Of a stretch of 64,000 nucleotides of DNA, positions 57,839 through 58,044 are shown piece after piece. How positions within the stretch are numbered: position 1 is the first letter of the stretch; the number at the start of each line of letters is the position of its first letter. The DNA is taken from positions 6,000 to 69,999 of the forward strand of contig LBSX01000002.1 of the NCBI GenBank assembly GCA_000990355.1. Reading direction: 5' to 3'. A model generated the notes under the pieces. The model worked only from the letters and a program-made list of their open reading frames with translations. It made no database searches and was not told the origin of the DNA. The position numbers were made by a program, and so were the translations under genes. This DNA is from Candidatus Magasanikbacteria bacterium GW2011_GWC2_37_14. GTDB lineage: Bacteria; Patescibacteriota; Patescibacteriia; Magasanikbacterales; UBA922.

Positions 57839-57866
57839 ACGTCGCACAATGTATATTATACGACGC
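57839..57866. other. dif-like 28-bp Xer recombination site ACGTCGCACAA-TGTATA-TTATACGACGC
   Basis: 11-6-11 architecture with imperfectly inverted arms (8/11). The central hexamer and inner arm bases match E. coli dif as I recall it (GGTGCGCATAA TGTATA TTATGTTAAAT). Lies between convergent genes. Confidence 0.5.
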
Positions 57867-58044
57867 TATATAGTAAGTAAAACCCTTCTTTCTACTACTT
57901 TCGATAATCCTAAACTAATCTTATTATTTACACCTCATTTGCGTCGTATAATATCAACCAGATTGTACAACAAAAAGTTGTCGCACAATCTGGTTATTCA
58001 ATAGCACGTATAATATTTATTTTATAAAATATTTTCTAATAATT

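Follow-up and report, generated by a model that had tools for sequence, protein, structure and literature searches.

The window, a 64-kb stretch of contig LBSX01000002.1 of Candidatus Magasanikbacteria bacterium GW2011_GWC2_37_14, contains a 316-bp intergenic region (57781-58096) between two genes that converge, plus-strand ftsQ and a minus-strand M23 peptidase gene. Within this region lies a 28-bp sequence of two 11-bp arms and a 6-bp centre that resembles the dif sites of the Xer recombinases, and the locus raises two questions: whether this sequence is the dif site of the chromosome, and what the additional half-sites and hairpins that accompany it represent. The evidence described below makes it very likely that positions 57839-57866 are the chromosomal dif site of this genome and of the Patescibacteria, also called the Candidate Phyla Radiation (CPR), generally. 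We infer that an Xer protein binds the site and catalyses recombination there. In the proposed mechanism, one or more Xer proteins would act on the site, with strand exchange across the 6-bp centre between sister copies, and chromosome dimers would thereby be resolved near the replication terminus; the participation of one or two Xer paralogues and control by FtsK would also be parts of this proposal. No description of a CPR dif site of this kind was found in the literature searched.

Architecture and Conservation of the 28-bp Site

The arms of the site, ACGTCGCACAA and TTATACGACGC, are inverted repeats around TGTATA (8/11 matching positions), and a wider palindrome with 18-nt arms (83% complementary) spans 57833-57872. 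An initial annotation, made from the letters of the window alone, had described a dif-like site with 8/11 arms and a 6-bp centre in a 316-bp convergent intergenic region; the site is present exactly at the coordinates given there, and the gene calls bear out the setting. In the 64-kb window the site has a single match even when one mismatch is allowed.

Comparison with relatives, as the annotation had proposed, gives a consistent picture. In three genomes with conserved synteny (L003, L006 and L008; FtsQ identity of 71%, 43% and 39%, respectively), all of which retain the convergent ftsQ / M23 / gltX order, the arms GTCGCACAA and TTATACGAC are identical, including both positions at which the two arms differ from each other. 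The centre varies among the window and these relatives (TGTATA, TATATC, TGTACC), and the remaining intergenic DNA is unalignable. Unchanged, slightly asymmetric arms combined with a variable spacer give this sequence the appearance of a recombinase core site.

The pattern GTCGCACAA-N6-TTATACGAC, with 18 fixed arm bases, was then scanned over a collection in which each species is represented by a single genome. Matches, one and only one per contig, were obtained on at least 119 contigs, which come from as many different assemblies, against a chance expectation, by our own arithmetic from the 18 fixed bases, of about 17 matches over the whole 596-Gb collection. In one closed CPR chromosome, OZ246416.1 (886,192 bp), the site is located near 301.6 kb. 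Nearly all of these matches belong to Patescibacteria, from 11 named candidate lineages and under generic Patescibacteria or Parcubacteria labels, and their flanks are unrelated. Explicit CPR names appear on 61 of the at least 119 records (Magasanik-, Uhr-, Falkow-, Moranii-, Berkel-, Doudna-, Davies-, Nomura- and Saccharibacteria, Paceibacter(ota), Parcubacteria and 'Patescibacteria group'). Another 47 records are titled 'uncultured Gammaproteobacteria' (third-party annotation metagenome-assembled genomes (MAGs), e.g., L010, L011, L015, L017 and L018), a label that is deemed unreliable because the inspected ones (e.g., L010, L015, L018 and L025) share the neighbouring gene families. Two further contigs, L080 ('Nanoarchaeia') and L090 ('Methanosarcinales'), also have FtsQ and M23 neighbours of the CPR type. 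These two and the 'uncultured Gammaproteobacteria' contigs probably come from Patescibacteria and have been mislabelled or mis-binned.

The consensus is RY-GTCGCACAA-T(A/G)TA(T/A)C-TTATACGAC-RY, in which the RY dinucleotides outside the arms and centre positions T1, A4 and C6 are conserved although the search pattern left them free. Across 114 loci the conserved block is 11-6-11 exactly, with information content falling to background directly beyond the 28 bp. The right arm reads TTATACGACRY in all loci surveyed, and the two arms are almost one sequence, differing at two positions.

Of about 120 related loci, 78 have an FtsQ homologue encoded beside the site and about 70 an M23 homologue; other lineages have wholly different neighbours. 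The genes on the two sides point toward the site in 66 loci and away from it in 3. The frequent association with ftsQ and the M23 gene, together with the fact that conserved half-sites about a variable spacer would also suit a dimeric DNA-binding protein, leads to an alternative in which the site is the operator of a protein other than a recombinase, be it a regulator of ftsQ or the M23 gene, a replication-fork barrier or a terminus-organising protein. This explanation appears very improbable. The site lies downstream of both convergent genes, past terminator-like hairpins and outside any promoter; its orientation relative to ftsQ and M23 flips among lineages (FtsQ is encoded toward GTCGCACAA in 24 loci and toward TTATACGAC in 54); and the sequence is kept amid unrelated neighbour genes and on phage contigs. 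Furthermore, the 11-6-11 layout and the inner ATAA/TTAT are features of dif sites, and genes for Xer-like recombinases adjoin the site in four genomes (see below).

Position Relative to the Skew Switch

The raw GC skew has its maximum at about 58 kb in the window. Because the raw skew tracks gene orientation, third codon positions were used, and the skew at these positions (GC3 skew) was computed on the top strand for the window and a 9-kb extension. The top-strand GC3 skew is positive in the minus-strand gene block (1.5-10 kb) and in the plus-strand block up to ~47 kb, weakly negative at 50-58 kb, strongly negative at 58-63 kb and negative again in the plus-strand genes at 63-72 kb. The cumulative GC3 skew is unaffected by the gene-strand switches at 10, 58 and 63 kb.

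For the survey loci, a comparison of GC skew to the left and right of the oriented site was rejected as a test of polarity, being independent of orientation and passed by any convergent junction; since it shows only a convergent junction, GC3 skew split by gene orientation was adopted. Among genes that point away from the site in 116 CPR loci, top-strand GC3 skew is still opposite in sign, with +0.06 to the left against -0.16 to the right (P = 4e-8). In the 116 oriented loci, the mean top-strand GC3 skew within 4 kb of the site is close to 0 on the left-arm side and between -0.09 and -0.16 on the right-arm side. These asymmetric means suggest that the skew switch usually lies a few kb toward the GTCGCACAA side, and the same is seen in the window.

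Candidate Recombinases

The recombinase was sought in the window through Pfam scans of 20 open reading frames (ORFs) and through phmmer searches of all stop-to-stop ORFs with an approximate E. coli XerD query. The initial annotation had named the presence of an Xer gene as a check on its proposal, and the outcome is mixed: there is none within 73 kb around the site, and Xer-like genes adjoin the same core in four other genomes. In Cohnella boryungensis (L013, core at 6381-6404), a gene for an Xer-like recombinase begins ~25 bp past the site. In two Flavobacteriales MAGs, L061 (149-172) and L127 (1359-1382), an Xer-like gene ends ~210 bp before the site, which in L061 is located at ~51% of a 1.23-Mb contig. 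In the Saccharibacteria MAG L064, an Xer-like gene lies ~110 bp from the site. Adjacency is thus observed in L064 and in three genomes from outside the CPR, and is not found in the window or in about 112 of the 116 CPR loci.

Among the NCBIfam families, the four recombinases are nearest to XerA, XerC and XerD, all under the family cut-offs. A dedicated recombinase family common to these genomes was considered and rejected, as the Cohnella, Flavobacteriales and Saccharibacteria proteins are only 23-29% identical to one another, about the same as to E. coli XerD. When the partial recombinase of L064 served as the search query, only two fragments were retrieved. In Cohnella and the Flavobacteriales, the recombinase gene and the core may form a module like xerS-difSL.

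A highly conserved Xer-like protein of ~304-314 amino acids, named xerD by the sources, is found in Saccharibacteria (L138 10001-10945; L141 10001-10915), with at least ~80% identity in the best 120 of 8000 scored matches. Its gene sits between ndk and a type IV pilus cluster and does not qualify as a site-adjacent recombinase, being distant from the site in two near-complete genomes. The link between an Xer enzyme and the site is therefore circumstantial in the organism of the window.

Weighing the Assignment

Several points weigh against the identification of this sequence as a dif site. The cumulative GC3 skew reaches its maximum at 49.9 kb and the site is at 57.85 kb, such that the two are 8 kb apart and do not coincide. 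The block of minus-strand genes to the right of the site spans only 5 kb. The right arm lacks the canonical XerD-type TTATGTnAAAT. Neither the 64-kb window nor the 9 kb that follow it contain a gene for a tyrosine recombinase, so that the enzyme acting on the site is a presumed one. The survey sampled CPR genomes with exact arms only. Finally, since the site adjoins ftsQ or the M23 gene in most genomes, part of its positional conservation could reflect a link with these genes.

With regard to the first of these points, dif sites of proteobacteria lie 0.6-96 kb from the skew maximum (PMC2731167), a range that includes the 8 kb observed here, and a skew plot of the kind that the initial annotation had called for does place the maximum of the window with its 9-kb extension in the neighbourhood of the site. 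The annotation's central claim, a dif-type Xer site at a terminus-like position, has on the whole been strengthened: the site is conserved CPR-wide, has a variable centre, is present in a single copy, lies ~8 kb from the skew maximum, is crossed in 116 genomes by a skew shift that does not depend on gene orientation and is linked to Xer-like genes in four.

Extra Half-Sites and Hairpins

On the M23 side of the site, the rest of the intergenic region in the window holds further arm-like sequences. A 14/14 inverted copy, GCGTCGTATAATAT at 57941-57954, consists of the last three bases of the centre and the right arm, reversed; of Markov-1 simulations of the region, ~0.3% yield an inverted repeat of 14 nt without a mismatch. 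The fold of the resulting structure, hairpin 1 (HP1, 57853-57954), has z = -3.6. An exact second copy of the left-arm core GTCGCACAAT lies at 57980-57989, and the 64 kb contain no others; a direct repeat of 10 nt is unremarkable by its length (P ~0.2) and matters only because the sequence is that of the arm itself. The second copy lies in hairpin 2 (HP2, 57956-57995), which as DNA has a folding energy of -13.4 kcal/mol (z = -7.1) and the 5' half of which contains TTGTACAAC (57963-57971), a degenerate inverted arm. Compensatory changes in HP2 are found in L003 and in 8 further instances. Beyond it, a terminator-like hairpin at 58044-58068 (z = -5.1) is kept in L003 with a compensatory change of G-C to A-T. 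The inverted copy, the left-arm core repeat, the bulged hairpin at 57956-57995 and a bidirectional terminator had all been listed in the initial annotation; each was recovered, the last with a 12-nt perfect stem.

The same elements recur among the other loci. Beyond the site's own arms, GTCG[CT]A[ACT]AA has 154 matches in 868 kb, compared with 39 in shuffled sequences, and these extra half-sites cluster 0-750 bp away on the TTATACGAC side (250-bp bins with 20, 24, 13 and 8 matches for one strand and with 16, 14 and 5 for the opposite strand; 0-1 elsewhere). Some of the matches, at about +320 to +640, fall inside the ftsQ coding sequence and may be coding coincidences. The cluster lies on the right-arm side in both orientations checked (the window and L003 versus L021, L038 and L045). 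An inverted copy of the right arm is located 37-102 bp from the site in 13 loci from several lineages. In 10 of the 13, the copy continues into three bases whose reverse complement is found at positions 4-6 of the genome's own centre, and four distinct centre triplets are represented among the loci with such a copy. The stretch that separates the inverted copy from the site is itself a perfect palindrome in several loci.

A hairpin follows 4-8 nt past the inverted copy, with arm-like cores in both halves and an outer stem that varies in sequence yet stays complementary (CCAGA/TCTGG in the window, TTACA/TGTAA in L003, GCAGA/TCTGC in L021). The module of half-site and hairpin occurs in tandem in L045 (from site+56 to about +330, in units of ~103 bp) and in L083 (from site+37 to about +160, in units of ~78 bp, interrupted by a run of N). 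In L008, a half-site lies 271 bp from the site and precedes the flanking sequence that is immediately next to the site in L006, a displacement that is the trace expected from an insertion at the site. In a k-mer comparison, the right flanks of the site shared no accessory motif and were lineage-specific.

Going by the general mechanism of tyrosine recombinases, strand exchange by a recombinase bound to one arm would require a match of the three adjoining bases of the centre. The inverted half-site at 57941-57954 and the hairpin at 57956-57995, with sequences derived from that of the arm, may be extra recombinase-binding sequences, either accessory sites or the footprints of small elements that the host recombinase integrated at dif, an interpretation to which we give about even chances.

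Alternatively, the hairpin at 57956-57995 and the terminator at 58044-58068 could be parts of a small RNA of ~110 nt, transcribed from a promoter with a -10 box, TATAAT, inside GCGTCGTATAAT; the similarity to half-sites would then be a coincidence of promoter and stem sequence. The 119-nt stretch indeed folds strongly as RNA (-34.8 kcal/mol, z = -8.4), TATAAT at 57947-57952 and an upstream TTTACA are both retained in L003, and compensatory changes are observed in the hairpin and in the conserved terminator. Nevertheless, this explanation appears unlikely. The -35-like hexamer is merely 14 nt from TATAAT, which makes a poor promoter, and distant genomes have TATAAC or TATAAG at that position, without a -35 element. 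No Rfam family matches at the gathering threshold, with only terminator-like noise at E values up to 10. The recombinase-arm motif is the conserved part of every hairpin, and an RNA has no reason to keep it; the inverted copy tracks the dif centre of its own genome, which is a relationship at the DNA level; and both the hairpin and the terminator have explanations of another kind.

Phages and Mobile Elements

The complete 28-bp site is present on seven IMG/VR contigs of 4.5-56 kb (L129-L133, L135 and L136; e.g., L130 11569-11592 and L132 331-354), with IMGVR_UViG_3300025326_000086 as one of the phage contigs. Genes for the terminase large subunit occur within a few kb of the site in L130, L131 and L132, which identifies these three as tailed phages; none of the short contig pieces that were examined showed an integrase. 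The phages that carry the site may integrate at dif by means of the host Xer.

These contigs bear on a further alternative, namely that the site is solely an attachment site for elements with integrases of their own and has no role in dimer resolution. Such a reading accommodates the complete site on phage contigs as well as the variable small genes and duplicated half-sites beside the site in many genomes. It is nonetheless the least credible of the explanations considered here: about 115 CPR loci show no integrase next to the site, apart from the Xer-like gene of L064, and invariance at the skew-switch position across the radiation, in genomes without integrated elements, would be unexpected. 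The genes between the site and its usual neighbours were themselves considered as integrases and found to be ordinary genes, including one for a 23S_rRNA_IVP protein.

With a chromosomal dif site as the favoured reading, the extra half-sites could have been left by elements that exploit it. The initial annotation had read them as remnants of Xer-exploiting integrative elements (IMEX). The one-sided clustering, the tandem modules and the phage-borne site agree with this suggestion; in the window, however, no cargo DNA is seen: the ~230 bp between the site and the M23 gene are gene-free and contain the inverted pseudo-site and the half-sites. The inverted pseudo-site, a short loop away from the full site, recalls CTXphi, which has paired inverted attP sites. 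Conceivably, the gene-less modules of half-site and hairpin move by means of the host Xer through the folded or inverted pseudo-site, the three centre bases of which would have to match the host dif, and the tailed phages of CPR bacteria integrate without an integrase of their own; we regard this as a tentative and rather doubtful scenario.

Relationship to Known Xer Systems

The dif site of E. coli and Bsdif of B. subtilis, which are recombined by XerC/XerD, have the same length of 28 bp, in which two 11-bp arms that show partial dyad symmetry enclose a 6-bp centre (PMC5357621, PMC2731167). The likeness extends to the inner ..ATAA / TTAT.., an AT-rich centre that is TGTATA or similar to TATATC, and the intergenic, single-copy location near a skew switch. 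Close in sequence to the CPR site are some alphaproteobacterial dif sites, among them that of Magnetospirillum, CGTCGCCATAATATACATTATGCGACAA (PMC2731167). In contrast to the XerC/XerD sites, with their XerD-type right arm TTATGTnAAAT, the CPR site has TTATACGACRY (compared with the proteobacterial table of PMC2731167), and it differs from dif of E. coli and B. subtilis also in its near-identical arms and in the one-sided half-site copies and hairpins. The archaeal dif recombined by XerA has the same 11-6-11 layout and arms that are near-palindromic like those of the CPR site; in P. abyssi it reads ATTGGATATAA TCGGCC TTATATCTAAA (PMC2958812).

The xerS and xerH genes adjoin their sites (PMC5357621), as do the Xer-like genes of the four genomes described above, unlike the window and most CPR loci. 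The arms of Helicobacter difH (AGTTATGAAAA) and of streptococcal difSL are unrelated in sequence to those of the CPR site, and the centre of difSL is 11 bp long compared with 6 bp in the CPR site.

Degenerate or partial copies of dif-like sequence on one side of the site, as observed here, are known from IMEX (CTXphi, VGJphi, TLCphi and the gonococcal genetic island, GGI) and from the pdif modules of Acinetobacter (PMC5357621). The tandem modules of L045 and L083, the phage-carried site and the match of the three centre bases that adjoin the arm are further similarities with these systems. However, the CPR modules, unlike IMEX, are ~80-200 bp long and have no cargo, and filamentous phages or islands make up the known IMEX, in contrast to the tailed phages of the site-bearing contigs. 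In the plasmid sites cer and psi, as here, a few hundred bp of accessory sequence lie on one side of a core (PMC5357621), although the accessory regions of cer and psi bind ArgR/PepA or ArcA and do not consist of copies of the recombinase arms as in the CPR site. Compared with these systems, the sequence is a real, functional-looking dif-type site with a set of half-site hairpins on one side.

Features of the Locus and Neighbouring Genes

The features of the intergenic region and its two flanking genes are collected in Table 1. The hairpin after ftsQ, the CGTATAATAT copy at 58007-58016 and the inverted arm TTGTACAAC were not in the initial annotation.

Table 1. Positions of the dif-type site, associated repeats and flanking genes in the window.
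Feature	Coordinates	Strand	Remarks
ftsQ-like gene (POTRA_1)	56782..57780	+	Last gene of the long plus-strand block; left neighbour of the site
Terminator-like hairpin downstream of ftsQ, GGAATAGAGGC / GCCTCTTTTCC	57801..57827	+	Function inferred from position and T-rich tail
dif-type 28-bp site	57839..57866	.	Left arm ACGTCGCACAA 57839-57849, centre TGTATA 57850-57855, right arm TTATACGACGC 57856-57866
HP1, 14-nt perfect inverted repeat	57853..57954	.	57853-57866 versus GCGTCGTATAA+TAT at 57941-57954; 74-nt spacer
HP2, bulged hairpin/palindrome	57956..57995	.	TTGTACAAC 57963-57971 in 5' half, GTCGCACAAT 57980-57989 in 3' half
Third, partial copy of the right-arm-derived decamer CGTATAATAT	58007..58016	+	Absent as a conserved element from L003
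Bidirectional terminator-like hairpin, TAAAAGGCCGTT/AACGGCCTTTTA	58044..58068	.	12-nt perfect stem; downstream of the M23 gene
M23 peptidase gene, coiled-coil N-terminal part, 413 amino acids	58097..59338	-	Start at 59338; right neighbour of the site

The FtsQ encoded in the window has the same sequence as a protein of Candidatus Magasanikbacteria bacterium GW2011_GWC2, and the locus is present on contigs of 71 to 92 kb. The genes of the window are on the minus strand up to 9.9 kb, on the plus strand at 10.2-57.8 kb, on the minus strand at 58.1-63.2 kb and on the plus strand thereafter. At 9865-10221, a tRNA-Asn gene and a CNNM/CBS gene (minus) diverge from a NUDIX gene (plus); this is a switch of orientation and not an origin, given that the third-codon-position GC skew is unchanged there. 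An ORF for 51 amino acids at 57849-58004, the ATG of which lies inside the site, was considered as a small protein and dismissed: the L003 ORF of similar length diverges after residue 7, and the conserved DNA block falls in different frames in the window and in L003.

Variable small genes are found between the site and the M23 gene in some genomes. In L006, 6434-6802 encodes the 23S_rRNA_IVP protein; further loci with such genes are L008 (6954-7505), L010, L022, L037, L115, L121 and L126. A protein of ~180 amino acids, exonuclease-like by eye, is encoded beside the site in 7 loci, often after a lone ATTGTGCGACAC half-site. From our own reading of the sequences, the intervening genes presumably encode exonuclease-like, NifU, LmbE-like, glucose-6-phosphate isomerase and DinB proteins. 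A right-flank motif, CGACAC-TACAGAAT..GGG(C/T)..ACAGG(G/T)..TAT followed by a short hairpin, occurs in several lineages and has no match in Rfam; it is located beside the site in L100, L076, L099, L048, L077, L128 and L006, and ~270 bp away from it in L008.

Implications for the Biology of the CPR

The CPR comprises a large share of bacterial diversity, almost all of it uncultured, and its chromosome biology is essentially unstudied. A near-invariant 28-bp marker of the terminus would provide an anchor for orienting and checking CPR assemblies and for flagging mis-binned or mislabelled contigs, as well as a defined target for genetic work in the small number of Saccharibacteria that are tractable. 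Its presence across the radiation suggests that dimer resolution of the Xer type survives extreme genome reduction, and the near-identical arms together with the missing XerD-type arm bear on the question of whether a single recombinase suffices. The one-sided half-site hairpins and the phage copies point to Xer-dependent mobile DNA in the CPR. If the modules and the tailed phages do use the host Xer, the CPR dif would be a general entry point for mobile DNA into very small genomes, and the phages would be the first case of a tailed-phage IMEX.
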